Shown here one piece after another: positions 1-47,015 of a DNA stretch of 64,000 nucleotides; position 1 is the stretch's first letter; every line of letters begins with the position of its first letter. The DNA comes from a virus. Taxonomy: Duplodnaviria > Heunggongvirae > Uroviricota > Caudoviricetes. Under the pieces are notes generated by a model, which searched no databases, was not told the origin of the DNA, and saw only the letters and a program-made list of their open reading frames with translations. The stretch lies in the IMG/VR virus record IMGVR_UViG_3300027985_001053; one strand, written 5' to 3'. The position numbers and the translations under genes are program-made.

Positions 1-1
1 G

Positions 2-538
2 GCAGGTAATAGAAATAATCTTAATATGTCTTTATATGCGACTCCTGCTGAAAGTTTATGCATGAAAGCTCGAGATAAAGCTTTAAGAGATTTCGGTAAA
101 ATTGAAGGAGTGACTACTAGGGAGTATTTTACTAATTCACATCATGTACCGGTGTACTACCCTATAACAGCTTTCGATAAAATAGCTTTAGAAGCTCCTT
201 TTAGTAAATTAGCTACAGCAGGAACCATTCTGTATAACGAGTTATCAGGAGATGCTATAGATAATATTCCTGCGGTTAAAGCTTTGGTAAGAAAAGCTAT
301 GGATAGTGAAGTACAGTACTACGCTGTAAATATTCCTAGAGATACTTGTAATGAATGTGGTCATAAAGGGTATGATCTTACAGCTTGTCCAAAATGTGGT
401 TCAAGTGAAATTAAACAGCTTAGAAGAATTACAGGTTATACTACTTCTGAGGTTAAGTATATGAACGATGGTAAGCAAGCTGAGGTTAGAGATCGTGTAA
501 AGCACATGAACTTTAATGCTATAGAAAAACTGATATGA
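2..538 (+). CDS. nrdD: Anaerobic (class III) ribonucleotide reductase large subunit, C-terminal part (gene starts upstream of window)
   Basis: Frame open from position 2; SLYATPAESLC, YFTNSHHVPV, CNECG..CPKCG zinc site and glycyl-radical loop LRRITGY. Confidence 0.95.
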   Translation, partial: AGNRNNLNMSLYATPAESLCMKARDKALRDFGKIEGVTTREYFTNSHHVPVYYPITAFDKIALEAPFSKLATAGTILYNELSGDAIDNIPAVKALVRKAMDSEVQYYAVNIPRDTCNECGHKGYDLTACPKCGSSEIKQLRRITGYTTSEVKYMNDGKQAEVRDRVKHMNFNAIEKLI

Positions 539-990
539 GAATAATAGGCTATACTCAGGATTCTACAGCAGATGGTGAAGGTTTACGGGACGTGTTATTT
601 GTTTCCGGATGTGATCATCGTTGTAGTTCTTGTCATAATAAAGAGAGCTGGTCCCCTGAAAAGGGGATTTTCTTCTCTAAGGGTATGAAAGCTAAGTTTA
701 TAGCTTATGCTAAAAGGTTGAATCCTCCAGCGGTAACTTTGTCTGGAGGAGATCCTTTATACGAAAGTAATTACGAAGAGATTATAAAGCTTTGCGAAGA
801 ATTAAAAGTAGAGGGAATAAATATTTGGCTTTATACCGGATATACTTTAGAAGAAATAAAAAATCTTCGCCCAGGTATTCTAAAAGTAGTAGACGTTATT
901 GTTGATGGTAAGTTTGATAAGTCATTAAGTGCTGAAGCTCCTTTGTTTAGAGGATCTTCCAACCAAGAGATACATAGGAGCCCATTTTAA
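535..990 (+). CDS. nrdG: Class III RNR activating enzyme (radical SAM)
   Basis: CxxxCxxC (CDHRCSSC), TLSGGDP, WLYTGYT, VDGKF, FRGSSNQ; ATGA overlap with nrdD stop. Confidence 0.95.
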   Translation: MRIIGYTQDSTADGEGLRDVLFVSGCDHRCSSCHNKESWSPEKGIFFSKGMKAKFIAYAKRLNPPAVTLSGGDPLYESNYEEIIKLCEELKVEGINIWLYTGYTLEEIKNLRPGILKVVDVIVDGKFDKSLSAEAPLFRGSSNQEIHRSPF

Positions 991-3195
991 ATGAAAGAGT
1001 GGAATAGTTTTGTAATAGATCCTCAATGGAGTGATAATATAGATGTTAAATCTTTTATGAGATGCAATCTTACGCCTTATGATGGAGATGATTCTTTCTT
1101 AGAGCCTCCTACAGGAGCTACATTATCTCTATGGAGAACTCTCAAAGAGATAGGATTAGATACTAAGAGAACCGATACATCAAAAGTAGGAAGTATCATA
1201 TCTCATAAAGAAGGTTATATAGACCAAGCATTAGAGAAAATAGTAGGACTACAATCTGAAAAGCCTCTTGAGAGTACCATTATTGCTCAAGGAGGTATTC
1301 GGTTAGTAGAAAAAACCCTTAATTCTTTAGGGTCCGATTTACCTCCAGAGGTTCGTAAAGCTTTTACTGAATATCGTAAGACTCATAATGACGGGGTTTT
1401 CGATGCTTATACAGAAGATATTCTTAAAGCTAGGAAGTCTGGAATTATTACAGGGCTTCCGGATGCCTATGGAAGAGGACGTATTATAGGGGATTACCGA
1501 AGAGTACCTCTTTATGGGGTATCGATTCTTTTAAAGGATAAGTTATCTCAAAAAGAATCAATTAGTGATGTTCTAACCGAGGAAACTATTAGACTTCGAG
1601 AAGAGCTTTCTGAGCAAATAAAAGCATTAAAAGATTTAATAACGTTAGGAAATAATTATGGGTTTGATTTAACTAGACCAGCTAATTCTGCTAGAGAAGC
1701 TATTCAGTGGTTATATTTCGCTTATTTAGCTGCTGTAAAACAACAAAACGGTGCTGCTATGAGTCTAGGAAGAACATCATCGTTTATAGATATCTATATA
1801 GAACGAGATATTCGTTCCGGTATTCTTTCGGAAATTGAAGCCCAAGAACTTATTGACCAATTTATTATGAAGTTAAGAATTGTTAGATTTCTAAGAGCTC
1901 CCGAGTATGACGAGTTATTTAGTGGGGATCCTGTGTGGATTACAGAATCTCTAGGAGGTATGACCTCTGAGGGAGGGCATCAGGTAACTAAAACATCTTT
2001 TAGGTATTTACACACTCTGTATAATCTTGGAGCGTCTCCTGAGCCTAATTTGACCGTTTTATGGGATGATAATTTACCAAGACCTTGGAAGGAGTTTTGT
2101 GCTAAAGTATCTATAGATACTAGTGCTATTCAATACGAAGATGATTTCCAAATGAGAGCTAAATATGGTGATGACTTCTCTATAGCTTGTTGTGTCTCTG
2201 GAATGACTACAGGTAAATCTATGCAATTTTTTGGAGCTAGAGCTAATCTAGCAAAAGCTCTTTTATATGCTATTAATGGAGGTAAGGATGAATTGTCAGG
2301 AGTACAAGTTTCTACGGAGCTAGAACCTATCTCCTCCGGAGTTTTAGATTTTGAAGATGTTTGGAACAGATTAGATATTACTTTAGATTGGGTAGCTAAA
2401 ACATACATAGATGCTTTAAATATTATTCATTATATGCATGATAAGTACTCTTACGAGAGTTTACAAATGGCTCTTCATGACCTATCCGTATGCCGTAATA
2501 TGGCCTGTGGGATAGCTGGATTATCCGTTTTGGTAGATTCGTTGTCAGCTATTAAGTATGCACAGGTAACTCCTGTTTTTGATTCAAGAGGAATTGTGTC
2601 ATCCTATACTACTGTTGGAAGTTATCCTTCTTTTGGAAATAATAATGATAAAGTAGATCTTTTAGCTAATAAAGTTATAGAGCTTTTTTTAGAAAAATTA
2701 AAGAAGCAAACTACCTATAGGGCATCTACAGTTACATTATCTATTTTAACAATTACTTCTAATGTAGTATATGGAAAAAAGACAGGTGATACACCTTGTG
2801 GTAGGAAAAAAGGGGAACCTTTTGCACCAGGAGCAAATCCTATGCATGGAAGAGAGTTTTCTGGACCGTTACATGCAATGAAATCGTTGACAAAGTTAGA
2901 TTACAACTTAGCTGAAGATGGTATCTCGTATACTTTCAGCATAGCTCCTTCATCTCTAGGTAAAGATCTAGAGGAACAAACTACTCGATTAGTAAGTTTG
3001 CTAAATATATATTTTAGGGAAGGTGGACAACATATAAATATGAATGTTTTCGATAAAAATCTTTTGCTAGATGCTTTAGAAAATCCTAATAAGTATCCTT
3101 ATCTGACTCTAAGAGTTTCCGGATATGCGGTTAGATTTAATAGCTTAACGAAAGAACAAAAAGAAGATGTTATTAATAGGACGATTCATACTTGA
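991..3195 (+). CDS. pflB: Pyruvate formate-lyase (formate C-acetyltransferase), full length
   Basis: [22 protein letters not shown], catalytic IACCVS (C400/C401), [11 protein letters not shown], glycyl-radical LRVSGYAV (G711); starts immediately after nrdG stop. Confidence 0.96.
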
Positions 3196-3307
3196 GCCAA
3201 CTTATTCTTGAGAGAGTTATTTGAAGATTTAAATAAAACATATAGCATTATATGGTACTTACTATATATTATATGACAAGATCTTTTAACATTTATAGGA
3301 GGCATAA

Positions 3308-3817
3308 ATGAATTTATTAAACAAGGATGTTTTTATACTGAAAACATCCACCGTTGGGCATGTTGTTGGTATTTCACTTGATATTAGAGGAACAGAGGTA
3401 ACCTCGTATTTAATAACTTCGGAAGACAATATTGAAGGAACCTGGTACTTTCGTTCTGAGTTTGAGGTTCTTGGTCAGAAAGAAACTAAGATGTCGAAAT
3501 ATCTATCTTTAGAAGAATTTGTAACTAAAGGTTATCTTCAAGAAGCTAATCGACGATTTTTCCATCCGATAGGATTAGCTTTAGAGATAGCCATTACAGA
3601 TTGCAAAGATGGCTCTGAACTCTATACTTTCTCAGGTATAAGAGATTCTCGAGAAGATGAGGAGGGTTTTATATTTGACCTAGAGCACTCTAAGAATGGT
3701 AGGTTGCTAAGGTTTAAGAATAATGCAAAATTCATTGATTCGGAGATTGCTAAACGTTCTTGTAAAAGATTAAATCTCTTTAATAGTATTGTAGAGCCAC
3801 TTAAAGGTCCTACCTGA
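3308..3817 (+). CDS. Hypothetical phage protein
   Basis: 169-aa ORF with AGGAGG RBS. Confidence 0.7.
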   Translation: MNLLNKDVFILKTSTVGHVVGISLDIRGTEVTSYLITSEDNIEGTWYFRSEFEVLGQKETKMSKYLSLEEFVTKGYLQEANRRFFHPIGLALEIAITDCKDGSELYTFSGIRDSREDEEGFIFDLEHSKNGRLLRFKNNAKFIDSEIAKRSCKRLNLFNSIVEPLKGPT

Positions 3818-4087
3818 TAGTCTATATTTTATTAGACTAATTCCTAAAAAGTTTTAGTTATAAACGGTAGTGAGGTTTAAAGGGAACATGAATAAGCTCG
3901 ACCGAAGAACCGGGGCTTTATATGACTAGCTATTTATTAGAGTTATATAAGGCTAAAAACCTTTGACCGTACCAAGCGGTATAAAAGTTATGGCGTGGAG
4001 TCTGTGGTAGGCATTTACTTCGTTAACATAAACATACCATCGAGAGTTCTAATAGATAGAAACTAATGCAGTTCGTGAATCTGCGGT

Positions 4088-4197
4088 GGGCAATTGGCAC
4101 TGGTGTCCTAATGTAAGAATAGTGGCTTGCAATGTATGTTGCAATCTTTATTATAATGCCTTACTTTATATCCCTGGTTCGATTCCAGGGTTGTCCA
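4088..4197 (+). ncRNA. tRNA-like element (canonical T-arm and acceptor stem, non-canonical middle)
   Basis: CCTGG-TTCGATT-CCAGG T-arm (4173-4189), then GTTGTCC-A that pairs with GGGCAAT (4088-4094) including G3:U70; no convincing D or anticodon arm; 110 nt. Confidence 0.4.
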
Positions 4198-4223
4198 TTA
4201 CTTTATAGGTTAATTTTCGGGGA

Positions 4224-4520
4224 TCATCTCGGATCCTCACCAAACCCTTTAAAAGGTTTTAGATTCTCCAGGTAGAACGGGTGGTTTAATAGATGGTCTA
4301 TAACGTCTGTTCGGAACCACTCCCCTCTTAAGTGATATCTCTTACATATTCCGTGCAAGTGTTGTTCAAAATTACTTTCAACATTTTCCAAGGTATATAA
4401 AATTCGTAAACTTGAAACATTAGAAGTTTGAAGTGTAGCTAATCTACTCTTTAAATCAGAGGTTCTTCCTATTTTTATACTATGAGATTTTCGATCAAGA
4501 ATGAAATATATTGTCACCAT
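4224..4520 (-). CDS. GIY-YIG-like (T5orf172/MUG113-type) nuclease domain protein
   Basis: IYFI..IKIGRT..L..RL..LQT..EQHLH..GEWF motif set. Confidence 0.75.
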   Translation of the reverse strand: MVTIYFILDRKSHSIKIGRTSDLKSRLATLQTSNVSSLRILYTLENVESNFEQHLHGICKRYHLRGEWFRTDVIDHLLNHPFYLENLKPFKGFGEDPR

Positions 4521-4591
4521 ATACTACAATAGTAAGCACTAGGATTTAGTTTAAAAATTCTCTACTATTATTTAGAGCAGGAGGTAATATA

Positions 4592-4945
4592 ATGTCAAAA
4601 TATTTAATTGACGTAGGAGTTGATGATCTTTCGTTAACTCTATTTATAGGGGAAGAAGGAAAAATACTATTCTTAGATAAAATAGAGGTTCTAAAAGCTT
4701 CAGGTCACGATATCAACGTAGAGGAGGGAGCGTTAGAGTATGCTCAAGGTTTATTTATTCCAGGAGCTCTCTGGGTAAAAGACTGGAATAGGAAAATTCT
4801 TCTACATGAGATGCAGCACTTTTTTGATGATCTTTTTGAAGAATTATCTATTACTCAGGAGGATGAAGCTAAAGCTATTTTCATGAGTAATATTTTGGAT
4901 AAAGTTTTATCTCTTAGAGATAAGTTTTTGGAGGAAAGTAAATGA
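4592..4945 (+). CDS. Hypothetical protein with HExxH-like motif
   Basis: LLHEMQH; GGAGG RBS. Confidence 0.6.
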   Translation: MSKYLIDVGVDDLSLTLFIGEEGKILFLDKIEVLKASGHDINVEEGALEYAQGLFIPGALWVKDWNRKILLHEMQHFFDDLFEELSITQEDEAKAIFMSNILDKVLSLRDKFLEESK

Positions 4946-5400
4946 CTTCTGTAGAGTTAACAAAAGAACATATTCTAAATGTTAAGAATAAACTAGCTAT
5001 AGTTATAGGGATTCTCGAATCTCGAGGTATTTCTCACGATAATTCTAAATTAGAAGACCCAGAGGTATCTATTTTTGATATTTATACTGATAAATTGAAG
5101 TTGTGTACCTATGGATCGGAAGAGTACTATCGTTATCTTAAAAGCATGAAACCTGCGTTAGACCATCATTATGCTAAAAATGCACATCATCCTGAGCATT
5201 ATTTAGATGGTATTAGCGGAATGACTTTGATAGATATTGTAGAAATGTTTTGTGATTGGGTGGCTGCTACAGAAAGGCATTCAGATGGCAATATTTATAA
5301 ATCTATAGATCTTAATAAAGATCGATTCAATATCCCAGAAGAGCTATGTAGTATTTTTAAAAATACTGCCAGGGAAGTTTTTGGAAAGGAGCTTATTTAG
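4942..5400 (+). CDS. DUF5662-like HD-related phage protein
   Basis: HDNSK, HHYAKNAHHPEH, EMFCDW motifs. Confidence 0.7.
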   Translation: MTSVELTKEHILNVKNKLAIVIGILESRGISHDNSKLEDPEVSIFDIYTDKLKLCTYGSEEYYRYLKSMKPALDHHYAKNAHHPEHYLDGISGMTLIDIVEMFCDWVAATERHSDGNIYKSIDLNKDRFNIPEELCSIFKNTAREVFGKELI

Positions 5401-5536
5401 TGACTGATTTAATTAAATTACATTCGATACTAATAAATTTAGGTGAGGTTCCTAGAGTACGAGGGAATTACATGTTTTTAGATAGACTTGTTTTTGAGTT
5501 TTCGTCCGAAGGGGACCTTATTAAGGTGGTTGATAT

Positions 5537-6067
5537 ATGATAATATTTTATGATTTTGATGGCGTTCTAGCTGATACACATGAGAATCTTTTGAGACTTT
5601 ATAATAAAGATTTTGATGACACTGTTTCCAAGAGTGATATTACTGAGTGGAATTTAGCATCTTTTGTTAAACCGGAAGCTAAAACCAAGATTTTTGATTA
5701 TTTGTTTAGTGAAGGTTTTTATGATAATGTAAAACCTAATAAGGATTTTATTGAAGCAGCTAAACGAAATATAGAGTTAGGTCATACTGTTGGAGTTGCT
5801 ACAGCATGTAATAATAATGTTACAATGATTTCAGGGAAGTTAGCATGGCTTGAAAAGCACTGTCCTTTTATAGACTTAAAAAATCTAATTATCGTTGATA
5901 ATAAAGGCCTTTTAAAAGGAGACCTTCTGGTAGACGATAAGCTTCAGAACTTAGAAGATTTTGTGGCAGCAAATCCTTTAGGAAAAGGATTGCTTGTTAG
6001 AATGGCTCATAATCAAAATGACGTGCTACTTACTCCCCGGATAAAGCACACTACTAGGACATATTGA
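5537..6067 (+). CDS. 5'(3')-deoxyribonucleotidase (HAD, NT5C-like)
   Basis: DFDGVLAD motif I, K..WL..H.PF, LLVDD motif IV. Confidence 0.85.
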   Translation: MIIFYDFDGVLADTHENLLRLYNKDFDDTVSKSDITEWNLASFVKPEAKTKIFDYLFSEGFYDNVKPNKDFIEAAKRNIELGHTVGVATACNNNVTMISGKLAWLEKHCPFIDLKNLIIVDNKGLLKGDLLVDDKLQNLEDFVAANPLGKGLLVRMAHNQNDVLLTPRIKHTTRTY

Positions 6068-6192
6068 CACTAAAAAGATAGCTATAGTTTGTTAATGCGT
6101 CATTATGTTACACTTTTAATGAGTTAAAGTGTTATTATGACTCACTCGTCATTAAAAGGTTCGACCTAAATGTGTTTTTAGTCAAGGATATG

Positions 6193-6209
6193 TTGGCACG
6201 GACTTTGCT
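6193..6209 (+). promoter_or_regulatory. Sigma54 (-24/-12) promoter upstream of hsp20
   Basis: TTGGCACGGACTTTGCT matches TGGCAC-N5-TTGC(A/T); GG at 6195-96 and GC at 6207-08; AGGAG RBS at 6221-25. Confidence 0.75.
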
Positions 6210-6233
6210 TTATAGCTAATAGGAGATTATTTT

Positions 6234-6626
6234 ATGAAAACTTATGATTTATTAACAGATTTATTTAACACAATGGATAGTATGCTAGAGACTCCTAGCA
6301 ATTTTAGTAAACAAACCCCTTCTTATGATGTAGTCGAAAAAGACGCTGAATTTCAGCTTAATATTTTAGCTCCAGGGGTATCTAAAGAGTCTATCGTTCT
6401 AAAAACTGAAGGTAGACTCCTTAATATAGTTGCCACCTCGGCTTATAGCGTTGATGAAAAAGATGGTTCTGTAACTAAAGGAATAACTGATTTATCGTTT
6501 GAAGTTACTTTTAAACTTCCAAGTTCAATAGATACTACTAATATTTCGGCTACTATCTTTGACGGTATTTTATCCATAAAGTTAGCTAAATCTAAAGATT
6601 TTACAAACTTTATTAAGGTTAACTAG
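6234..6626 (+). CDS. Small heat-shock protein (Hsp20/alpha-crystallin)
   Basis: APGVSKESI, F.LP..ID...I.A...DGILSIKL alpha-crystallin signature. Confidence 0.88.
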   Translation: MKTYDLLTDLFNTMDSMLETPSNFSKQTPSYDVVEKDAEFQLNILAPGVSKESIVLKTEGRLLNIVATSAYSVDEKDGSVTKGITDLSFEVTFKLPSSIDTTNISATIFDGILSIKLAKSKDFTNFIKVN

Positions 6627-6668
6627 AAATAAGTATTCTTTCATGATACTATGGTCTGAGGAGATTAT

Positions 6669-7079
6669 ATGAAAGAATACTTATTACAGCTAAAAGAAAC
6701 CGAGGATAAGTTAGCTAATATTGTTAAAGAAATACAGGAGAAAAAAGTTTCTTACGAGTCTTTGATAAAAGATTTAGTCGAAACAAAAAGTGTTTTAGAG
6801 TCAAAAGTTACGTCTTTAAAACAAGCGATTAACCCTTTAGCTTTAGCTGAGTTTATAGGAACGGGTTCTAAAAAATTGGAAGGTGGGGTAGGTATACGGT
6901 CGTCTAAAAAAATTAAGTATGACCCAGCTAAAGCTTTAGATTTCGCCAAAGAAAAAGATATGTTTCTGACTCTTGATGTAAAAGCTTTTGAGAGTGCTGC
7001 TCCTAAGTTAGGGCTTACGTGGGTAACGGTTGATACAGTACATAGTGTTACGTTCCCAAAAGTAATATTACTAGACTAA
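6669..7079 (+). CDS. Coiled-coil phage protein, Gam/Gp157-like
   Basis: N-terminal coiled coil, then GVGIR..KKI.YD...A..FA segment typical of Gam-like proteins. Confidence 0.4.
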   Translation: MKEYLLQLKETEDKLANIVKEIQEKKVSYESLIKDLVETKSVLESKVTSLKQAINPLALAEFIGTGSKKLEGGVGIRSSKKIKYDPAKALDFAKEKDMFLTLDVKAFESAAPKLGLTWVTVDTVHSVTFPKVILLD

Positions 7080-7112
7080 ACTCCTAAAAGTAACTATTCA
7101 TTTTAGGAGTTT
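7072..7112 (+). promoter_or_regulatory. Sigma70-like promoter inside a perfect 12-bp anti-SD hairpin
   Basis: TAGACT-17-TATTCA; AAACTCCTAAAA (7078-89) pairs with TTTTAGGAGTTT (7101-12), which contains the RBS. Confidence 0.7.
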
Positions 7113-7114
7113 TT

Positions 7115-7621
7115 ATGAGTGAACCATGTTTAATGCTTAGTCTAGATATTGATAGAGATATGTTTATAGAGTTTATAAGCTCTTTGGACGAGGCTCTTAT
7201 TGATCCTACGGAGGGTATTGAATGGTTTAACCATGTTACCGTGTTATATGGTATTAAAGATCCTGGGAACTCTACATTACAACTTGCGAAATTAATAAAC
7301 TCTATGCACTCCTTCCCGATAAAATTAGGGAAGGTTTCTTTTTTTAGAACAAATCCTGACTTTGATGTTTTAAAAGTTGAGGTAGAGTCTAAAGAACTAC
7401 TTGTATTTAATTCATTAGTAAGGTCTTTGGTTCCTTATGAAAATTCTTATCCAGAATATATTCCGCATTTTACAATAGCTTATGTTAAGAAAGGAGCTTT
7501 TGATTATCTTGAAGGTTCTGATTATTTTCAAGGATTAAGTTTCTTTCCTAGGGAAGCTACTTTATCCTTCTCCGATAGGTCTTGTCTAGATATTCCTTTC
7601 TATAACAGTAAAAAATTATAG
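7115..7621 (+). CDS. 2H phosphoesterase (2'-5' RNA ligase/Acb1-like)
   Basis: Two HxT motifs: HVTVLY (H40) and YIPHFTIAY (H118). Confidence 0.8.
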   Translation: MSEPCLMLSLDIDRDMFIEFISSLDEALIDPTEGIEWFNHVTVLYGIKDPGNSTLQLAKLINSMHSFPIKLGKVSFFRTNPDFDVLKVEVESKELLVFNSLVRSLVPYENSYPEYIPHFTIAYVKKGAFDYLEGSDYFQGLSFFPREATLSFSDRSCLDIPFYNSKKL

Positions 7622-7628
7622 AAACCTG

Positions 7629-7667
7629 TTTACAAAAATATTCTTAAAGGTTAAGATACTTTAAGGA
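7629..7667 (+). promoter_or_regulatory. Sigma70-like promoter inside anti-SD hairpin
   Basis: TTTACA-17-TAAGAT; TTCTTAAAG (7641-49) pairs with CTTTAAGGA (7659-67). Confidence 0.6.
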
Positions 7668-7677
7668 GTAAACAAAA

Positions 7678-8793
7678 TTGAATCTCATAAAAAAATTTAA
7701 ATCCGCAGACCATTGGTTAGATTTATATCTAATGTTTATCAGTATAGGTCTAAACGCCTATTCATTTTTTGGAATAATGACTTTTGAATCAGTATTACCA
7801 AAAATCTTTATAGCTTCCTTTGGAGCATCTTTAGTTCTTTTACAAGTTAATGTTCTTCGTAAATGGAAGGTAACGAAAAAGGGTTCTCTGCTCATAACTT
7901 ATAGTATATGTACCTTTTTTTCATTATTAAGTACATGTTATCTAATTACGTCCCTTACTTTAGGTAAAACGGTCGAACGAAACTCTACGTTAGATGTTAT
8001 ATCTAGACAGATCGATGATTTATTAGCAGATAAGGAACGTTTGATAGTATCAAATGATGCTATCACAACAACAAATAATTTGCTAACTTCCAGTATAAAC
8101 GACATTAAAGATGATAAATCTTTTTATGGTGATAATTTCTATACTTTGAAAAAACAAGCTACTGCTCAAATTGCTGATAAAGAGCAAAATATCCTTCTAA
8201 ACATAGAAGCTCAAAAAGAAAATAATCTTGAGATTCAGAATATTGCTGCTAAGATTTCTAAGCTACGATCTGACAAAGCCCTATTGGTTTCCTCCGGAGA
8301 ATCTGATGGCTTTGAAAAATTAGCGAATGCCTTAAATATTCCTTATGAAATTCTTCTAGTAGTTTCTTTTTTCTTATTAGCCTCTGTCCTAGAGTTAGGT
8401 ATTTTTATTCTAACTCCTGCTTTAGGGGAGTTTTCAGAGAAGGAAGAACATCGTTTGGTGGAAGACCTTTTAAATAAACTTGAAGTCACAGAACTAGAGT
8501 TAAAAGCTTTAGAGAAAACTTCTACTACAGTACAGCGTCCTACGATTGATAAATATATAGATGCTTTGTTTTCTACAGGAACTAAAAAGTTAGCTAAGAA
8601 AGAAGATGTTGCTAGAATCACAGGTTATAATGCTAACGTGTGTGATGATTTTCATATAAAACTAACCAATAAGTTTGGCAGTAAGAAAGTTCCTTTTATT
8701 CAAACGGAACGAGGACGAGGAACATTCTCAGTTTATACACGAGAAGAAATTAAAAATGAAATTAGTATAAAACCACAAAAGGTGAGAGCATAG
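7678..8793 (+). CDS. Membrane protein (3 N-terminal TMs, coiled coil, further TM)
   Basis: Hydrophobic segments and heptad-rich middle; TTG start with AAGGAG RBS. Confidence 0.65.
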   Translation: MNLIKKFKSADHWLDLYLMFISIGLNAYSFFGIMTFESVLPKIFIASFGASLVLLQVNVLRKWKVTKKGSLLITYSICTFFSLLSTCYLITSLTLGKTVERNSTLDVISRQIDDLLADKERLIVSNDAITTTNNLLTSSINDIKDDKSFYGDNFYTLKKQATAQIADKEQNILLNIEAQKENNLEIQNIAAKISKLRSDKALLVSSGESDGFEKLANALNIPYEILLVVSFFLLASVLELGIFILTPALGEFSEKEEHRLVEDLLNKLEVTELELKALEKTSTTVQRPTIDKYIDALFSTGTKKLAKKEDVARITGYNANVCDDFHIKLTNKFGSKKVPFIQTERGRGTFSVYTREEIKNEISIKPQKVRA

Positions 8794-8802
8794 GAATTTA
8801 TT

Positions 8803-9093
8803 ATGGAAGATAGTTTAGTAAGTAACTCTTATAAAATGTTTAATTTAAATGATGTTGTAAAAATAGAAAAATCTTTAGACTCCTTAGGGTCTGATTCTTC
8901 ATTTTGTATTATTCTCTCGACAGAAGGACGAGGATTGATAGAAATGTCTGAAGAAGAGGTTGATTTTGCAGATAAGTATGTTCTTAGGGCCGTTACAGAT
9001 AAAGAGAAAAAAAGTTCAGCGTATAAAACTTTCTTAACGGTGACAGGGATGACTCCTTATGAACCGGAATATGGAGTTGCTACGTTATTTTAA
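8803..9093 (+). CDS. Hypothetical protein
   Basis: 96-aa ORF in operon context. Confidence 0.55.
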   Translation: MEDSLVSNSYKMFNLNDVVKIEKSLDSLGSDSSFCIILSTEGRGLIEMSEEEVDFADKYVLRAVTDKEKKSSAYKTFLTVTGMTPYEPEYGVATLF

Positions 9094-9120
9094 ATATGCT
9101 ATATTTAGTTAGGAGCTGGA

Positions 9121-11379
9121 ATGAAAATAAAAGAAATATACTTTAAAGGGTTTAGAGTATTTAAGGATGAGGTTTTGCTTACTTTCGATTCAGAGTATAT
9201 TCTGTTTCTCGGTGGAAACGGGAATGGTAAGAGTTCGGTTGTAAAGTATATAGATTTAAATCTTTTAAACCATATATCGGAATCAGATCTTTCAAGAGAC
9301 CATTTAATCCATAGGTCTTCTGATAGGTGTGATTCTTATTTAATTTTTGAACATAGAGGTGGATTATTCAAATCTTCGCTTTCTTTAATAAGAGAAGGTA
9401 AGTCTGCCCAGACTTCACGAGAATTGGTAAATCTTTCAACAAATGAATCTTTAGGAACTGAAACTTCTCAAGTAGTCGATATTTTGGCTAAAATGTTTGA
9501 TCCAGTAATATCTCGTCATGCTATTGCTCTTAGGCAAAACAGTAAAGAGATTATTACAAGTAAACCTGCGGATCGTTTTAATATTTTTAAGAAAGTGCTG
9601 GATGTTACTTTTGTAGAAGCGATACAGATCGTAGAGAGAGAAATTAAGAAGTTAAATGAAGAAATATCTTCTATAAGAGGAAAGCTTTTAGCTTATAAAG
9701 AGCGAGATTATTCGCCTTTACCTATACCGGAAACAAATTTATCTGAAAAAGCCTATAACTCTTTAGTTGAAGAAGTGACGCTTCTTCGGGAAAAGAAAAC
9801 GCTTCTTTCTGAAATAAAGAAGTCTTATGATTCTTTAAAAACTGATATTGATACTATTTCTGATAGAATAAGTTTAACTGATGCATCGATTTCCAGAAAA
9901 ACTCGTCTTTTAGATTTTGCGAAGTCTGAGATTCTATCAGAGAGTGCTATTATAGCTTTACCTACGATTGTAGAGATTTCTAATAACGTATTAAATCTGG
10001 AAAAAAGCTTACAAGCTCTTTCTAAAGATACTTATTTAGAAAGAGCTAAAAGCAAACTTGTTTTAGAGAGAAAAGCAATTGAAGATTTACTTCTGGCTAA
10101 TGAGAAGTCTTTGGAATTGTATCCCAGGAAAAGAGCTTTATCAGATAAGACTGATGAGTTTTCTGATAAAATACAGGACTTAAAAGATATTCTATCTAAG
10201 TACCTTTCAGAAATATGTCACTTAGATGAGAGAATAGCTTTTATGAAAAAAGGTGTATGCTCTGAATGTGGTTCGCACATAGATTCGTCCGATCTTCCGA
10301 AGCTTATGTTAGAAAAGGATTTGAAAATATCTGCTAAAATAGATACAGAGAATTTAATCAACATAGAAAAAGATGCTTTGCTAAAGCATAAAGAGGATCT
10401 TGCTAACGAGAGAGCCTATCTTCTTTCTCGTGAAACGCTTCTTAATAAGAATACTTCTTTAAAAGAGTCTTTAGAATCTTTATCTAAGCAGGAAGCAACT
10501 CTACTAGAAGGAGCTTTAGCAGAATTTAATTCAGATAAAGTTCTTCTGGAGTCTAAGATTGAATCTGAAAAATTAGCTCTATCTACGGCTATATCTAATG
10601 CTCAGACCTTATCTGATAATAAGAAAAAAGAGGTAACTAATTTATTAGAAGATATAGCTTCTTTGGAACAGGATAAGACTGCTTATACAGAAGATTTAGA
10701 TAAGAAGAATAGATCTCTTTCTGAGATAAGCCTTCCGGATTTAAGTCAAATAGATATTGACCTTATTAGTAAGGATACCTCAATTACAAAGTATGAAGAA
10801 GAACTGAAGAATAGAGATACTACTATAAGTAATAATGCTCTTTTAGAAGCTCAAGAAAAATCTGATAAAGAGAAAGTACAGACCTTAAATAAAGAGTTAG
10901 ATATTCTTGATGCTAAATTAGCTATGAGGGTTACTGCAAAAAAAGTACTAGAAAAAGATTTACCTTCTTATATAATTTCTGAAACAGTTCAGAATATTAC
11001 TTCATCAATAAACTCTTTTATAGAAGATGTCTATACAAAACCTTTAAATATTAGTTTAAGGCCTACGGCAACTTCTCTAAAAATGGAGGCTGATGGATTA
11101 CCAGTATCTTCTGTTTCTGGGGCAGAAGAGGTAATTACTTGCTTAGGATTTGTAGATGCTATTAGAGAGTTTACGGATTTAGACCAAGATACTATTATCC
11201 TAGATGAATCGGATGCTGCTCTCGATGATGAAAATGCTGTTTCTTTGTTTGAAGCAATTGATAACCTGGATTATGAACAAGTTATTATTGTTACGCATAG
11301 TTCTAGTATGAAAGAGTATTTTTTGAATAGAGGTGCTAAAGGGTATTTATTTAAAGATGGAAATGTGGAGGAAATATGA
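9121..11379 (+). CDS. sbcC: SbcC/Rad50-like SMC ATPase (gp46-like)
   Basis: Walker A GGNGNGKS, long coiled coil with CSEC zinc hook, signature VSGAEE, Walker B ILDESD. Confidence 0.9.
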   Translation: MKIKEIYFKGFRVFKDEVLLTFDSEYILFLGGNGNGKSSVVKYIDLNLLNHISESDLSRDHLIHRSSDRCDSYLIFEHRGGLFKSSLSLIREGKSAQTSRELVNLSTNESLGTETSQVVDILAKMFDPVISRHAIALRQNSKEIITSKPADRFNIFKKVLDVTFVEAIQIVEREIKKLNEEISSIRGKLLAYKERDYSPLPIPETNLSEKAYNSLVEEVTLLREKKTLLSEIKKSYDSLKTDIDTISDRISLTDASISRKTRLLDFAKSEILSESAIIALPTIVEISNNVLNLEKSLQALSKDTYLERAKSKLVLERKAIEDLLLANEKSLELYPRKRALSDKTDEFSDKIQDLKDILSKYLSEICHLDERIAFMKKGVCSECGSHIDSSDLPKLMLEKDLKISAKIDTENLINIEKDALLKHKEDLANERAYLLSRETLLNKNTSLKESLESLSKQEATLLEGALAEFNSDKVLLESKIESEKLALSTAISNAQTLSDNKKKEVTNLLEDIASLEQDKTAYTEDLDKKNRSLSEISLPDLSQIDIDLISKDTSITKYEEELKNRDTTISNNALLEAQEKSDKEKVQTLNKELDILDAKLAMRVTAKKVLEKDLPSYIISETVQNITSSINSFIEDVYTKPLNISLRPTATSLKMEADGLPVSSVSGAEEVITCLGFVDAIREFTDLDQDTIILDESDAALDDENAVSLFEAIDNLDYEQVIIVTHSSSMKEYFLNRGAKGYLFKDGNVEEI

Positions 11380-12341
11380 AATTAGTAAAAATTGGTGATA
11401 TTCACAGTATGTTAAAAGCTACTCATTTTAAATCTACTCAAGCATTTTTTGCTTATTTACTTACTAGTGATTTAAATAATAATCAAACGACCTTATTATT
11501 TTTAGGGGATATAGTTCATTATGCCAATTCTGAGCCGTCTGTAGTAGCTCTTTGGATAAAATTTTGTAATGATTTCTTAGGGGAAATTGTTATTTTAGGT
11601 GGTAATCATGATGACAGTGCTTTAAACAAGCAAAACTTTTTAGATATCTTCGAGGGGTGTCCTAATGTAACTGCTGTTCAAGAACCATGTGAGATGATGT
11701 TTGGGTCTTTGAAAACGTTAATGCTACCTTTTTACAGGCATACGAGATTAAAGCATCTTCCTCCTATGGAAGATTTGTATCCTTCTAAAACAGGGGAATA
11801 TGATTATATCTATTTACACATGGAGACTAAACCTACTTTTTCTAAAGGAATTACTCTTCATGAGGATCTAAAAGGTACTATTCGATCAGGTCATATTCAT
11901 ACAGGCTCTGAGAACGGGTGTTACTTACCTTCTGTGAACCCTACATCTACTACAGAAAAAGATGTTAAAACGTATATAGAAATTGTTGATTGTGAGACAA
12001 AAGATGTTGAAAAACGTTATATTCCTAGGTTTCTAAACTATGTAACTTTTAATTATCTAGATGATATTGTTATTCCTAACGATGGGTTATATTACTTAAT
12101 AGATATTTATCATGCTCCTGGAAGGAAAGATGCTGAAGAATACTATAAAGATGTTTTAGATCAAGAAAATGTTTTTTTGCATAAGGTTTATAAAAAAGAG
12201 TTTATCTTAGACCGTCAGGCTAATTTATTTACTAGTACAAAGGTTCAGCTTAAAACTCATAAAGAGTTCTTACTTGAATTAGCAAGTACTAAAAAGTTTA
12301 ATAATGATTTAACATCTTATCTAGAAAGTTTAATTGCATAA
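11376..12341 (+). CDS. sbcD: SbcD/Mre11-like metallophosphoesterase nuclease (gp47-like)
   Basis: GDIH, LGDI, GNHD, GHIH motifs; adjacent to SbcC. Confidence 0.88.
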   Translation: MKLVKIGDIHSMLKATHFKSTQAFFAYLLTSDLNNNQTTLLFLGDIVHYANSEPSVVALWIKFCNDFLGEIVILGGNHDDSALNKQNFLDIFEGCPNVTAVQEPCEMMFGSLKTLMLPFYRHTRLKHLPPMEDLYPSKTGEYDYIYLHMETKPTFSKGITLHEDLKGTIRSGHIHTGSENGCYLPSVNPTSTTEKDVKTYIEIVDCETKDVEKRYIPRFLNYVTFNYLDDIVIPNDGLYYLIDIYHAPGRKDAEEYYKDVLDQENVFLHKVYKKEFILDRQANLFTSTKVQLKTHKEFLLELASTKKFNNDLTSYLESLIA

Positions 12342-20097: not shown

Positions 20098-23000
20098 ATG
20101 GCAGGAATAGGTAATCAACTAGTATCATATAGCTACAAAATGGAAGCTACTTCAAAGTTATTTAATAGTTTAAACCATGGGGTATTAGATAAAGGAGTTT
20201 ATTCCGGAGCAGAGTTTTTAAAAGCTGTATCTGCAACTACAACAGAGTTTAGAATTACCCCAGGAACTTTTATTTTTATTACCGAAAATGAAGGTGTTGC
20301 AGCAAAAATAACTACTCAAGAAGTTATTACAATAGATAAAGCTACTTATGGCTTTGATGACCTACATAATACTGTAGTAGCTAGGTTTAAGTGGTTGAAT
20401 GCTGAAGGGACTTATATGGAGATACGATGTGTAGATCCATTAATAAATGAAGGTTCTTTGTCTAATAGACATGCCGAAGATATTATTTTAGGAACTCTTT
20501 CTACAAGTTTAGGGCTTTTAAACAGTACGCTTAGTATCAATTCTTTGTTTAATACAGAGAACAGAGATATTCCTTCCATTAGAAAAGACTTTATAGAACC
20601 AAACTTTAGAGTTTATGCTACCGTACCGTATACAAACTCAGTAAACATAAGCTCAGGACATATTCAAGCAAAATCTCAAGAAATTATTTATGGAGGTGTT
20701 ACAGCTTTTCCAAATAATGATAAAATTGTAACATCTCACCAGGGATTAACAGAACTAACATCAGTATCTCAAGTAGGATTCACCTTACCAAGTGCGTCTC
20801 TTAAAAGAAAAGATCTTATATATCTTGTAGTAGAGAACGATGATTTACGAGTAGAAGTTCTTCAAGGGACTGCTGTTACGTTAGCTAGTACCGCAATTGC
20901 TCCAGAATATTTAGGTAGAAATGTTATCGCAGAGGTTACTGTACGAGGTGACAGGTCCTACATTGCCCCTGAAGATATTAAAACAGTATCTACAATTACT
21001 AAAGACCTTTCTAAAGCACTTTTTATTGATTTAAAATCTCGTTCGTTAGACACTTGTTCGTCAAATGGAGATTACATATTTACATCAGTGCTTAATAATC
21101 CTGTAGGGACTCCTGCTTCTTATGGGCTTCCTTCTGATTTAACGCTTGTAGATAGTCAAAATATTGCAGGAGTGTTAACAACAAAAGGAAATAGTTCTCA
21201 AGATATTTATCAAACTCTTATTCTTCAAGAAAATGACCAGATTTTACGGCCTAGGATATATAATAGACAAAGTGATGGAGGTGTTTTTACTTCATGGGTT
21301 GAGTCTAATGTGAAGAAAAATATTGTTGGATTAACAGATTCAGACTCTCCTATTTTTGCAGGGTTGACTTTAACAGGGATAGCTACATTTTCCGGAAGTT
21401 CTATAGACTTTACAAAGCCTTTAGGGATTACTGACAACAGTATTTCGGTTTACAGGAATACTGCCTCTGGAACATACGGCTTAAACTTTATTAGATCTAG
21501 TATTACACGAGGTTATGTTTCTTTTGATTTTTCTTCATCTCAATTGAAATTTCAAGCGGACGGGTCATACTCTTTTAGAAACGCTGCTGATACAGCTAAC
21601 TTAGTTACACTAACAGACACTGCATATAATAGTTATGTTCCAAATGTAATTACTGTTTCCTCAGGAACCCCTTTAGCCATTAAAGCAACAGTTCCGACTA
21701 GTTCTTCATATATTTCTTTTATAAACAATCTATCAAATAAAGACGTGTTTTTTGGGCTTGGTAACTCAGAAAATTCAGGAGTATCAGTAAGAGACAGGAG
21801 TTATTGGTACGCTAATACATCACTAGGTTTATCTTTAATCGCTAATAACAATGATATAAGGTTTTACTTTAACATAGGAACAGAATCAGCCAGAATGTTT
21901 TCATCAGGTCGTTGGGGGTTCGGTGCAATTGTTGATGATGGAACTCATGCAGTACAGATTGCAGGAAGAGTTCGCTATGGAATCGGAGATAGCTATATAA
22001 GTTCACAACATATTTCAGATTATAACATGATAACGTTTTCTAGTTCTGGGGTAGCATCTTCTAATCAATACTTAATAGCTTATTCTGATTTACATAACGT
22101 AACTCCGTTAGCTTTGGCGTTAAAAAACCTAGTAGGAGATATAGGATTTTATACTGGAGCAAGCGTTACAGAAAGATTAAAAATTACTAAAAATGGTGAG
22201 GTTCTAATTGGCACAATTTCAAGTAATACCGCAGGTAGTAAATTACAAGTAGTAGGAGAAACAGAGTTAAGAGATGATGGTGCTTTTCCCCTAACTTTAT
22301 ATCGATCTAGTAAGGTTGCTAATGCTGGAGTAGTGTTGAATTTCGGATTAAATAATTCAAACGACATTAGAGTAATATACAGTCGGTTAGTTGGAAGTCT
22401 AGTCACAAATACCGCTGGTAGTGAAAAAGGTGAACTAAAGGTAGGGGTTACTTTTAATGGTTCAAACATCTATACAACTCAGTTTTTAGGAGATAGTACT
22501 GTTAGTTCTGTACCACTATCTATTAATGTATCAACTGCAGCAGCAGAACCTTTAAAAATAAAGAGTACAGTATCAGTATCGTCATCGTATCTTTTGTTTG
22601 AAAATGATTTGGGCGACAGGAAGCCTACATTTGGAGTAGGAAATTCAGCACATCCTTATGCTTCCATTTTAGGACGTGGTTTTTGGAGCAGTAACTCAGC
22701 TTTAGGATTATCTCTTCTAGGAAACAATACTGACATCCGATTTTACAAAGATTTATCAACTGAATCAGCTAGAATGTTTAGTTCAGGTCGATGGGGTTTT
22801 GGGACAACTGTTGATGATGGTGCAAATACGATTCAAATAGTAGGTGGATTGTCAATAAAAAAGTCAGTATCAGGAACTTTTTCAGCTTTAACATTAGCTA
22901 ATCTCTCAGGTGCAACAAATGATGAAGTTGTTCTTGATTTTTCAATTGCTTCTGCTGGGCTTGTAACATCTAGAATTATATCAAAAAAAATAGGAGGTGC

Positions 23001-25263
23001 AGGGGCTTCAAATTTAATATTTCAAAACTATTCTGGAACAGAGATGGTAACTTCATTAACTGTTGGTTATCAAACCATTATAACAAATAAACAAGTTATT
23101 TATAGAATAGATGATGTTGAAAACGCTCGTATATTTAGTTCAGGTCGATGGGGATTTGGTACAACTACAGATAATGGTTATACAGTTCAGGTAGCTGGGA
23201 CTTTATCAGTTAATAATAAATTAACAATAGGAGATAGCTTAATAACTGCATCAAAACCAGTTTTAATAAACTCTGGAGTGTCATCGGTTGAATCTATGAT
23301 AATAGATGGAATAGGCACTCTAACAGGATTGACAATAAAAGTAGCAACATCAACAAAGGGAAGAGTTTGGGCAAATAGTACTTCTGGTTTTTTTGCAGTA
23401 GGAGCAGGAAATGAAACAGACAGTATTCTTTTTAAAAATGGGAATGCACTTTTTGGAAGTAATGTTGATACTGGGGAAAAATGGCAGGTAACAGGAACAG
23501 GCAAAATATCGCACTCTCTTAGAATTGACAATCAAAAGCCATTGGTTAAACTTGGAACAATAGCAGACTTAAAGGCATACGTTCCAGTTGACAACGAAGT
23601 ATTAGTGAAAGTATCGGGTTATTACACTGCTAATTCTTGCCCAGACATCCCAATTTATAGTTATGATCCCTCAAGCACAGAGACACCAAACAATTACTCT
23701 ATAATACAGCCCACAGCCGTAACAGGAGCAGGGCGATTTAAATATAATGTAGAGGTATTAGATGCTAGTTGGAGTCCAGCGATAGGAGATGGAGTTACAG
23801 ATGACTCTACAATAATCAATGAACTAATCACAAAAACAAAAGGTTATTTAATAATTGATAAAGATTATTATGTACCGAACCTTGTGAACCTTAATGGTAT
23901 AAAATTCAAGGGTTCGGGAAGGCTTTTAAAAGATGCTAAAGGTAGTGGAAAAGATAGGGCAAACTCAGAATCCGATAACTATCAATATGTGTTTGGAAGA
24001 GAATATTTATCTCATTTTCATCAAAAATATATTGATGGATGGACAGCAAAACCGAAAGTTATTTTTTCAGGAGACAGTACTACATGGGGTGTGCCTAGTT
24101 CTTTGTATAATGTAAATGAGCTTTTTGAAAATGTAGCAAACGCAAAAGGTATGCAGACAGTATATGGAATTGATAGTATAAACGCTGGTCATTCTGGGGA
24201 AAGTACAGCAACATGGCTATCAACACATTTAGATGTAGATATGGCACAAAATCCAAATCTTTACGTTTTAAGATGGGGAATAAATGATGGTGCATTAAAT
24301 CCAGCAACATTTTTATCTAATCTTAGAGCAGGATTGTATAAAATTAGAGTAACTTTAGGAAAGCAAATTGATTCTTTATCAATAATTTTAATGGCTCCTA
24401 ACTCAACAAATGATACTCCAAATGGAAGAGATGCAACGTGGTATGAATCTCAACTGCAAGGGCTAAAAGAAATAGCAAGAGAGTTTAGTTGTGTTTTTAT
24501 TGACACCTATTCATATTTTAGAAATGTAGCATCAGCATCAAATATTTATATGGATGATCCTTATGGTAACGGTATAGCAATACACCCTTATCCAGTAATG
24601 TATCAGTGGATAACAAGCATAATTAGTGATGTAGTATTTCCTGATGTTGTATGTTCTAAGGCTTCTTTAACTAACTTTACATCGACATCAGGGGGAGAAG
24701 CTACAACTCCGATTGCAACAGTACCTTCAAGTTTTGGATACGGCTTAACAGCAAGAAGAACAGCACCGGGGGATGGATATCAATATGATGGGAATATCTT
24801 TACACTAAGAACAGGGGATGAAACATTATTTCAAATAAATTTTCCTTACGGTACCAATTCAAGAGATTTTAGTTTTAGGGTTGGAAGCAGTGCTACTGAT
24901 CAATGGTCGACATTTTCAAGAGTTGGAGGAGCTTTTTTTACGCTAACAAGCCCATACACTATACCAGCTAGACCATCAGCAGGACTTATTATTAAAGTAG
25001 AGGGATCATTAGCTTGTTTAAGTGGATATATAACAATCCCAGCAACAACAATACCTGTAGGTGGTATTATCGCAACAATACCAGCAGGAGTAAGAATAAC
25101 AACAACGGATTCAATTCTTATCTTGGGAACTACAAACGCATCAGGTATAGCACATGTTAGAATAGAAATTAATCCCGATGGAACAATAACATGCCCTGAT
25201 GGGGTTTCTAATCCAGGATCACCATACAGATTATATATAAATGCTATCTATGATATAGGTTAA
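20098..25263 (+). CDS. Long tail fibre/tailspike with SGNH hydrolase domain
   Basis: Gly/Ser/Thr-rich fibre with three RxFSSGRWGFG repeats, TIADLKA/GYY tailspike-head motif, GDGVTDD, SGNH blocks FSGDS, GHSG, GIND, D..GIAIHP. Confidence 0.85.
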   Translation: MAGIGNQLVSYSYKMEATSKLFNSLNHGVLDKGVYSGAEFLKAVSATTTEFRITPGTFIFITENEGVAAKITTQEVITIDKATYGFDDLHNTVVARFKWLNAEGTYMEIRCVDPLINEGSLSNRHAEDIILGTLSTSLGLLNSTLSINSLFNTENRDIPSIRKDFIEPNFRVYATVPYTNSVNISSGHIQAKSQEIIYGGVTAFPNNDKIVTSHQGLTELTSVSQVGFTLPSASLKRKDLIYLVVENDDLRVEVLQGTAVTLASTAIAPEYLGRNVIAEVTVRGDRSYIAPEDIKTVSTITKDLSKALFIDLKSRSLDTCSSNGDYIFTSVLNNPVGTPASYGLPSDLTLVDSQNIAGVLTTKGNSSQDIYQTLILQENDQILRPRIYNRQSDGGVFTSWVESNVKKNIVGLTDSDSPIFAGLTLTGIATFSGSSIDFTKPLGITDNSISVYRNTASGTYGLNFIRSSITRGYVSFDFSSSQLKFQADGSYSFRNAADTANLVTLTDTAYNSYVPNVITVSSGTPLAIKATVPTSSSYISFINNLSNKDVFFGLGNSENSGVSVRDRSYWYANTSLGLSLIANNNDIRFYFNIGTESARMFSSGRWGFGAIVDDGTHAVQIAGRVRYGIGDSYISSQHISDYNMITFSSSGVASSNQYLIAYSDLHNVTPLALALKNLVGDIGFYTGASVTERLKITKNGEVLIGTISSNTAGSKLQVVGETELRDDGAFPLTLYRSSKVANAGVVLNFGLNNSNDIRVIYSRLVGSLVTNTAGSEKGELKVGVTFNGSNIYTTQFLGDSTVSSVPLSINVSTAAAEPLKIKSTVSVSSSYLLFENDLGDRKPTFGVGNSAHPYASILGRGFWSSNSALGLSLLGNNTDIRFYKDLSTESARMFSSGRWGFGTTVDDGANTIQIVGGLSIKKSVSGTFSALTLANLSGATNDEVVLDFSIASAGLVTSRIISKKIGGAGASNLIFQNYSGTEMVTSLTVGYQTIITNKQVIYRIDDVENARIFSSGRWGFGTTTDNGYTVQVAGTLSVNNKLTIGDSLITASKPVLINSGVSSVESMIIDGIGTLTGLTIKVATSTKGRVWANSTSGFFAVGAGNETDSILFKNGNALFGSNVDTGEKWQVTGTGKISHSLRIDNQKPLVKLGTIADLKAYVPVDNEVLVKVSGYYTANSCPDIPIYSYDPSSTETPNNYSIIQPTAVTGAGRFKYNVEVLDASWSPAIGDGVTDDSTIINELITKTKGYLIIDKDYYVPNLVNLNGIKFKGSGRLLKDAKGSGKDRANSESDNYQYVFGREYLSHFHQKYIDGWTAKPKVIFSGDSTTWGVPSSLYNVNELFENVANAKGMQTVYGIDSINAGHSGESTATWLSTHLDVDMAQNPNLYVLRWGINDGALNPATFLSNLRAGLYKIRVTLGKQIDSLSIILMAPNSTNDTPNGRDATWYESQLQGLKEIAREFSCVFIDTYSYFRNVASASNIYMDDPYGNGIAIHPYPVMYQWITSIISDVVFPDVVCSKASLTNFTSTSGGEATTPIATVPSSFGYGLTARRTAPGDGYQYDGNIFTLRTGDETLFQINFPYGTNSRDFSFRVGSSATDQWSTFSRVGGAFFTLTSPYTIPARPSAGLIIKVEGSLACLSGYITIPATTIPVGGIIATIPAGVRITTTDSILILGTTNASGIAHVRIEINPDGTITCPDGVSNPGSPYRLYINAIYDIG

Positions 25264-44424: not shown

Positions 44425-44449
44425 AAAGTGTAAGATAAGAGGAGATACT

Positions 44450-45631: not shown

Positions 45632-45656
45632 AAAGCGTAAGATAAGAGGAGATACT

Positions 45657-46658: not shown

Positions 46659-47015
46659 ATTATTACTATTTTTTAAGGTGTGAAACTTTGTAGTATGTAG
46701 TATGCCTCAGTTTATGTAATTATTTGAGGTATACAGGATATAGCATATAACCGTGAAGAACTTCATTTATATTTTTCAAGGCAAAGAACTCCAGACATAA
46801 AGGAGATACAAGTTATTTATCTCTATAACTTATTGAAAGGCCTTTGGCTTCTTACAGAAGAGAGATGGGCTGTACTTATTAAAAATCAACGCTATCTACA
46901 TATCTTGACTAAAGTTTATTATGATATAATCCTTGCACATTTATGACTCCCTATGATATACTACCTAAAGTCAGTATGGTTCTTATCTAGAATTGTACTA
47001 CTTTGGAGGATTATT

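Follow-up and report, generated by a model that had tools for sequence, protein, structure and literature searches.

Why would a tailed phage carry a complete pyruvate formate-lyase (PFL) directly behind its anaerobic ribonucleotide reductase? The question is raised by the beginning of a 64,000-nucleotide (nt) stretch of viral DNA (IMG/VR record IMGVR_UViG_3300027985_001053, Caudoviricetes; the stretch as a whole is called the window here). At this end, three genes on the + strand fill positions 2–3195: the 3' part of nrdD, encoding a class III ribonucleotide reductase (RNR), the activase gene nrdG and a pflB gene—three abutting genes, just as a preliminary description made from the letters of the DNA had stated. 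We consider it probable that the block is a phage auxiliary-metabolism module, in which the PFL feeds formate to NrdD and host pyruvate pays for deoxyribonucleoside triphosphates (dNTPs) under anoxia.

The nrdD-nrdG-pflB block and its catalytic residues

The window opens inside nrdD, the last 178 codons of which (2–538, + strand) match PF13597 with an E value of 6e-50 and both TIGR02487 and NF005497 over their final ~165 positions. The fragment encodes SLYATPAE at nt 29–52, a Cys4 zinc ribbon (CNEC...CPKC, fragment residues C116, C119, C129 and C132) and the glycyl-radical motif RRITGY, with the Gly at fragment residue 145 (nt 434–436). It can be aligned to the solved structures 8p23, 1h78 and 9d3x, the nearest solved relatives being the NrdDs of P. 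copri, of T4 and of entry 9d3x. The second gene, nrdG (535–990, + strand), encodes a radical-SAM activase of 151 amino acids (aa) that scores 151.2 bits against TIGR02491 (cut-off, 126.1) and carries the cluster motif Cx3Cx2C as C26-C30-C33. The third, pflB (991–3195, + strand), encodes a 734-aa PFL that reaches 1059 bits against TIGR01255, exceeding the equivalog cut-off of 994.2 over the full length—residues 4–733 span profile positions 2–741.

The junctions between these genes are tight. At the first, ATGA at 535–538, the nrdG ATG (535–537) overlaps the nrdD TGA (536–538); at the second, the nrdG stop codon TAA (988–990) runs straight into the pflB ATG at 991, so that the PFL does begin one base past the nrdG stop, as first described. 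A Shine-Dalgarno sequence for pflB, AGGAG (976–980, + strand), lies inside the 3' end of nrdG, 10 nt 5' of the ATG. The first real gap since nrdD is an AT-rich spacer of 112 bp 3' of pflB (3196–3307), which probably marks where the operon ends; the gene that follows starts with an ATG at 3308 and has its own AGGAGG. The RNA fold of the spacer shows weak AT hairpins (z = -2.5), and a promoter/terminator scan of positions 1–6200 found no canonical + strand terminator directly 3' of pflB and promoter-like sites at chance level (21 found vs 24.6 expected).

In family and catalytic apparatus, the window PFL resembles that of the E. coli focA-pflB-pflA locus (57% identity; C418/C419, G734 in RVSGYAV, R176 and R435). 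The catalytic Cys pair is C400/C401 in IACCVS (nt 2188–2193) and the glycyl-radical residue is G711 in RVSGYAV (nt 3121–3123), exactly as numbered in the preliminary description, and R176, W333, C418, C419, F432, R435 and G734 of E. coli PflB are all kept in the alignment. The pyruvate/CoA-site residues among these (R176, W333, F432 and R435) are also kept in three other PFLs discussed below (L002, L003 and L004). The window protein is predicted to be a lyase converting pyruvate and CoA into acetyl-CoA and formate. Judged from substitution rates, the copies in the window, L002 and L003 are under purifying selection (dN of 0.31 for the window vs L002; dN of 0.14 and a saturated dS of ~2 for L002 vs L003). 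We also considered, and rejected, a cofactor of the GrcA/Y06I type (~80–130 aa): the protein is a full 734-aa enzyme, and GrcA models cover only its residues 661–733. Unlike the E. coli locus, the 64 kb window contains neither PflA nor FocA, and its pflB sits in a phage nrdD-nrdG operon.

Origin of the PFL and recurrence of its linkage to nrdDG

Two checks suggested in the preliminary description—a synteny search and a tree of the PFL against cellular PFLs—place this gene among its relatives. Among 5.8 billion proteins, the two nearest PFLs (62–63% identity) are encoded on short metagenome contigs in the same gene order. One of them, L003, repeats nrdD (673+ aa)-nrdG-pflB, while L002 shows nrdG-pflB with a 35-codon gene end upstream, and in both the genes overlap by 4 bases. 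No sequence outside the three genes is shared between the window and L002/L003; since nrdD, nrdG and pflB are all that they have in common, the block behaves as a module. In the PFL tree, the window protein groups only with L002 and L003, the trio forming one clade with a Shimodaira-Hasegawa-like approximate likelihood ratio (SH-aLRT) support of 100. This clade is nested, with 98–99% support, in a group with PFLs whose source labels are metagenome-assembled genomes (MAGs) of Spirochaetales. These latter PFLs belong to ordinary cellular loci (e.g., pflB-pflA-focA in L006, where pflA adjoins pflB), and the best reference-genome match to the window PFL, at 61%, is likewise to a MAG of Spirochaetaceae.

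The NrdG tree is congruent with this picture. The window NrdG falls in a tight phage clade of nine members (support 99/95), inside which the three NrdGs linked to PFL group together as a subclade (93/93). Four other members of the clade that were looked up have nrdD-nrdG without pflB. The simplest reading of both trees would be that pflB was captured once, long ago, behind nrdG and that the two have since been inherited together, and PFL appears to be an accessory rather than a core gene in this phage lineage. In L111–L114, the place behind nrdG that is taken by pflB in the window holds small ORFs or genes for an HD-domain protein, a dGTP diphosphohydrolase or a dUTPase—a slot that seems to collect nucleotide-metabolism accessories.

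Cellular PFL genes have different neighbours. A PflA-type activase was found within 3 kb in 66 of the 80 cellular PFL loci used as controls (three of the 66 also have FocA), and NrdG or NrdD in the 3-kb flanks of none. Three long-branch PFLs that had been suspected to be phage-borne were rejected as such: P0005 and P0110 are cellular, with a PflA of 240–246 aa adjoining, and P0119 is set among ordinary cellular genes, although without an adjacent activase.

The preliminary description had held that phages carry only the small GrcA protein and never a whole PFL. This is contradicted by a full-length PFL family in PHROGs (phrog_21327, matching the window protein with an E value of 6e-257) and by at least 19 viral PFL loci in IMG/VR, which fall into several groups. 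In addition to the order seen in the window, linkage between PFL and nrdDG occurs in other orders. In L024, from a 109 kb genome with terminal repeats (G008), the order is nrdD-pflB-nrdG with overlapping genes, and the PFL is accompanied by a single activase of NrdG size. In the code-4 phages L004 and L005, nrdD-nrdG is followed by a gene for a 77-aa radical domain and then by one for a 675-aa PFL body. This split and permuted PFL (L004:3042–5820; the same in L005) has TGA at conserved PFL Trp positions; the radical-domain gene, with RVSGYAV, begins on the nrdG stop codon, and the body ends where the radical domain should start, at about E. coli residue 677. A split enzyme in natural order—a 680-aa PFL body and then a separate 77-aa radical-domain gene—is found at 4977–7270 of L029, a 110 kb viral contig whose PFL clusters with that of L004.

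Two further groups differ in context. The jumbo-phage PFLs L014, L018 and L022 form a distinct clade on a long stem branch, with the PFL distant from nrdDG. In the genomes G001–G003 (L014, L018 and L019; 233, 220 and 135 kb), more than 90 kb separates the PFL from the nrdD-nrdG pair, and each of them (100%, 96% and 59% complete, respectively) encodes a PFL together with a single NrdD and a single activase of NrdG size. L012 and L026 are a cellular-type pair, with PflA beside pflB in L026 only (the L012 contig is short).

The PFLs of L024, L004/L005 and the jumbo phages are 51–55% identical to the window PFL and belong to other clades. In these phages, as in the window, a full or split PFL comes with only one activase, of NrdG type, and with an NrdD of the formate type (a probable assignment for the window); they differ from it in PFL clade and gene order, the window clade having its own Spirochaetales-labelled sister group. 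In approximately unbiased (AU) tests, we constrained the linked phage PFLs to share one origin, using either L004 alone or L004, L024 and L029. Forcing the window clade together with the L024/L004/L029 clade cost 62.7 log-likelihood units (p-AU 0.046), and forcing it with L004 alone gave p-AU 0.075. Given these borderline values, two origins of the nrdDG-PFL linkage are favoured but not proven.

Proposed formate supply and competing explanations

For the PFL to matter to its neighbour, NrdD should be of the type that takes its electrons from formate, the NrdD1 type of E. coli, T4, L. lactis and P. copri; it is marked by Cys residues on the first strand and in the finger loop, by Asn in place of a third Cys and by the lack of an active-site Glu. 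These diagnostic sites of the window NrdD lie upstream of the window, and the full-length L003 NrdD was read as a stand-in; the 177 residues that it shares with the window fragment are 72% identical. Its best solved relatives are the NrdDs of P. copri (E 2e-111), 9d3x and T4, that of T. maritima being remote (3e-10). The P. copri enzyme requires formate in assays, a requirement that its authors attribute to Cys171, Cys416 and the replacement of a third Cys by Asn435 (PMC11226230). The L003 motifs HNC (first-strand Cys), MGC (finger loop) and GRGN (Asn at the third-Cys site) align exactly with these three residues (C171, C416 and N435), and the NrdDs of L004 and L024, nearest to 9d3x and T4 and likewise distant from that of T. 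maritima, show the same formate-type pattern. These comparisons support the view that the NrdD lineage of the window is of the formate-using type, with the active site read in L003 and not in the window itself, and the formate-type assignment first proposed for this gene stands at the level of the lineage. The argument then offered for it does not: the Tyr of SLYATPAE was taken as the mark of formate use, and T4 (SLYSTPAE) and 9d3x (SVYSTPSE) have it as well, but it is not diagnostic because the formate-requiring P. copri NrdD has Leu there (SILATPAE).

We propose the following sequence of events. An ancestor of the phage lineage would have taken up a pflB of cellular origin, closest to those of Spirochaetales, and set it immediately behind nrdD-nrdG. 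In an anoxic infection, the products of nrdD, nrdG and pflB would be made together; NrdG would put the glycyl radical on NrdD, and NrdD would turn nucleoside triphosphates into dNTPs, one formate going to CO2 per nucleotide. The phage PFL would cleave host pyruvate and CoA into acetyl-CoA and formate, and the formate so derived would keep the NrdD reductant supplied through many rounds of replication of the ~130 kb genome. The idea of formate supply is well supported by comparison, and formate supply is probably the selected function. The preliminary description had likewise proposed a dNTP module diverting host pyruvate: the tight phage-borne coupling, the formate-type lineage and the recurrent linkage speak for that part of it, whereas the label 'self-contained' does not hold, no PflA-type activase being present in the window.

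The scale of the demand can be estimated. T4-type class III ribonucleotide reductases spend one formate on each dNTP, and the needs of a large phage run to tens of millions of dNTPs in every burst: some 2.6e7 would go into 100 genomes of 130 kb, a number that exceeds a millimolar formate pool many times over in a cell of 1 fL. Other phages point in the same direction. T4, with nrdD-nrdG and the GrcA-like spare part Y06I/vs.6 (the subject of Wagner et al. 2001, going by its title as cited in PMC13450708), likewise combines a formate-type class III RNR with an investment in keeping PFL active. GrcA-like genes occur in ~1,580 deposited phage records. T4-like and T5-like phages, however, carry the radical domain only (~120 aa), and in those T5 and T4-like records that were inspected GrcA does not neighbour nrdDG, whereas the window phage has a whole 734-aa PFL in the operon. 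Together, the PFL within nrdDG, its recurrence in other phage orders and the widespread GrcA of T4-like and T5-like phages point to formate as limiting in anaerobic replication.

Viral PFL as such is already present in databases and has been listed among auxiliary metabolic genes (AMGs), where it is handled as a carbon-metabolism AMG (PMC13644194). The giant algal virus TetV-1 has been cited for its fermentation gene PflA (PMC12043954). Although TetV-1 resembles the window phage in being a virus with a PFL-pathway fermentation gene, it differs in infecting eukaryotes as a giant virus, in having its own PflA and in lacking any connection of this pathway to a class III RNR. In our literature search, no paper connected PFL in phages with the formate that NrdD consumes or described nrdD-nrdG-pflB, a June 2026 review of glycyl radical enzymes did not mention phage PFL, and the securing of the reductant itself by phages was not discussed. 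TetV-1 reportedly also encodes PFL (Schvarcz and Steward, 2018). In the light of the window operon, 'PflA' and 'PFL' entries in viral AMG catalogues should be read together with RNR genes.

Several points weigh against formate supply. The PFL is dispensable, as the four close nrdDG phages without it illustrate, and in jumbo phages it is found over 90 kb away from nrdDG. Since acetyl-CoA, and with it ATP, also comes from the PFL reaction, selection may have favoured a product other than formate. Moreover, the window offers no PflA; in a host that lacks PflA as well, the phage PFL would do nothing unless NrdG activated it.

This last point leads to the question of how the phage PFL acquires its radical. 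A tblastn search of the window with E. coli PflA matched only the 151-aa NrdG, PflA-type activases being ~240–250 aa long, so the module probably relies on host PflA or on a putative second activity of NrdG. In the latter case, phage NrdG would radicalise both NrdD and PFL, making host PflA unneeded—a notion that touches the activation step only, is compatible with formate supply and deserves to be taken seriously as a minority possibility. Glycyl-radical enzymes usually adjoin their activase, as in the great majority of the cellular PFL loci above, and here the sole neighbouring activase is NrdG; the complete or nearly complete G001 and G002, together with the terminal-repeat genome G008, likewise combine a PFL with just one activase of NrdG size, and in L004 the free-standing radical-domain gene has its start overlapping the nrdG stop. 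On the other hand, glycyl-radical activases are usually specific, and action on PFL is not known for any NrdG. The radical loop of the window PFL retains RVSGYAV and its context, as recognised by PflA, unchanged from cellular PFLs, the PFL has no counterpart of the NrdD zinc ribbon, and PFL-linked NrdGs have not diverged further from their PFL-free relatives (63%) than from each other (64%). A complex prediction of NrdG with the PFL radical domain scored 0.00 and, having been run without controls, is evidence neither way. Our preferred reading is that host PflA, rather than NrdG, would install the radical on the phage PFL; the title of the paper on T4 Y06I/GrcA suggests as much, and the cellular relative L006 has its pflA next to pflB. 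The bolder version, in which a dual-specificity 151-aa NrdG would make nrdD-nrdG-pflB a truly self-contained pyruvate-to-dNTP module able to work in hosts without PFL and PflA, strikes us as doubtful. If true, no smaller PFL activase would be known, and NrdG would be the first activase shown to act on two different families of glycyl-radical enzymes; either way, one activase gene between two glycyl-radical enzymes offers a clean test case for activase specificity.

Formate supply itself has to be weighed against a more general role in fermentation, in which the PFL would serve acetyl-CoA and ATP formation (through host phosphotransacetylase and acetate kinase) or redox balance, and would neighbour nrdDG merely through co-regulation of anaerobic, oxygen-sensitive glycyl-radical genes. 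PFL is, after all, a central energy enzyme; the distance between PFL and nrdDG in G001–G003 and the absence of PFL from close nrdDG relatives fit such a role, and the sole paper found to discuss phage PFL classes it with carbon metabolism (PMC13644194). Yet an immediate linkage to nrdDG occurs in at least two PFL clades and three gene orders (one clade being disfavoured at the AU value of 0.046 given above) and in not one of the control cellular loci, and all sufficiently complete PFL phages examined also carry a formate-type NrdD or an NrdD. We judge a general fermentation role to be unlikely.

The PFL-family protein could, in principle, act on another 2-keto acid, as TdcE does as a 2-ketobutyrate formate-lyase, or have a non-catalytic role. 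Sequence cannot confidently separate TdcE from PflB, and the window PFL sits on a long branch (0.65); nevertheless, it beats the PflB equivalog cut-off and keeps every pyruvate- and CoA-site residue checked, and we regard such a role as very improbable. TdcE, too, produces formate, and the logic of formate supply would therefore hold with a TdcE-like enzyme.

Phage context and other genes of the window

The window is clearly part of a large, uncultured tailed phage and not host DNA, which bears out the phage-borne nature of the operon claimed at the outset. The 60 kb that follow the block encode a T4-type baseplate wedge, a tail-fibre-like protein of 1,721 aa, a clamp loader and a primase, along with SbcC/SbcD, an NAD-dependent ligase, a dNMP kinase, a 5'-deoxynucleotidase, a CCA-adding enzyme and a DNA methyltransferase. 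Nearly all long ORFs of the window lie on the + strand, and GC is even at 31–36%. A protein index places the pflB gene on a contig of 129,693 bases, and one Logan contig covers window positions 1–1472 and extends 1,693 bases beyond the window start. As 1,693 equals 129,693 - 2 x 64,000, ~1.7 kb of the source should lie upstream, roughly enough to complete nrdD. The stretch is contained only in sequencing runs of a hydrothermal-vent metagenome and its twin data set, with no RNA run among those listed, and megablast of window positions 1–12000 against deposited phages gave no match.

That the contig end is host DNA or an assembly chimera, with a bacterial PFL, is scarcely credible: nrdD is truncated by the window start, most full-length PFL matches among deposited phages stem from host flanks or contamination (e.g., ycaO-focA-pflB-pflA in ON470599) and a second Logan contig diverges inside pflB at 1472, but nrdG and pflB abut without a gap, two independent contigs assembled from other samples repeat the three-gene order, the trees of PFL and NrdG agree, GC and strand continue into the phage genes, PflA and FocA do not adjoin pflB as they do in cellular loci, and the PFL branch is long and phage-like. 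Full-length PFLs of deposited phages were set aside as precedents, ON470599 being host flank and most of the others short unannotated fragments or contaminant-like bacterial records.

The second Logan contig (2,147 nt; depth 7.6 vs 15.9) shares with the window only the 30-mer at 1443–1472 inside pflB. Beyond it, the contig encodes no in-frame PFL, and neither the window nor any fetched locus contains this further sequence, which could reflect strain variation, recombination, a mobile element inserted in pflB or an artefact of the assembly graph. The listed Logan contigs leave window positions 1473–3400 uncovered, a gap that proves nothing.

Elsewhere in the window, the 1,721-aa tail-fibre-like protein (20098–25263) has a GDSL lipase/esterase domain at residues 1325–1503, possibly a deacetylase acting on surface polysaccharide. 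A 670-aa protein (39294–41306) matches PHROG 1735 over its full length (E 2e-251; function unknown), is highly conserved in phages and has no Pfam domain. The gene for the CCA-adding tRNA nucleotidyltransferase is located at 41834–43126, yet a scan of the 64 kb window with ARAGORN revealed no tRNA gene. A 270-aa phage-encoded protein (46953–47765) carries a GmrSD_N (DUF262-type) nuclease N-terminal domain. Finally, the genes at 43123–46658, 50726–52027 and 58983–60104 are paralogues that match PHROGs 6688 and 21719, both of unknown function, and one of them has leucine-rich repeats.

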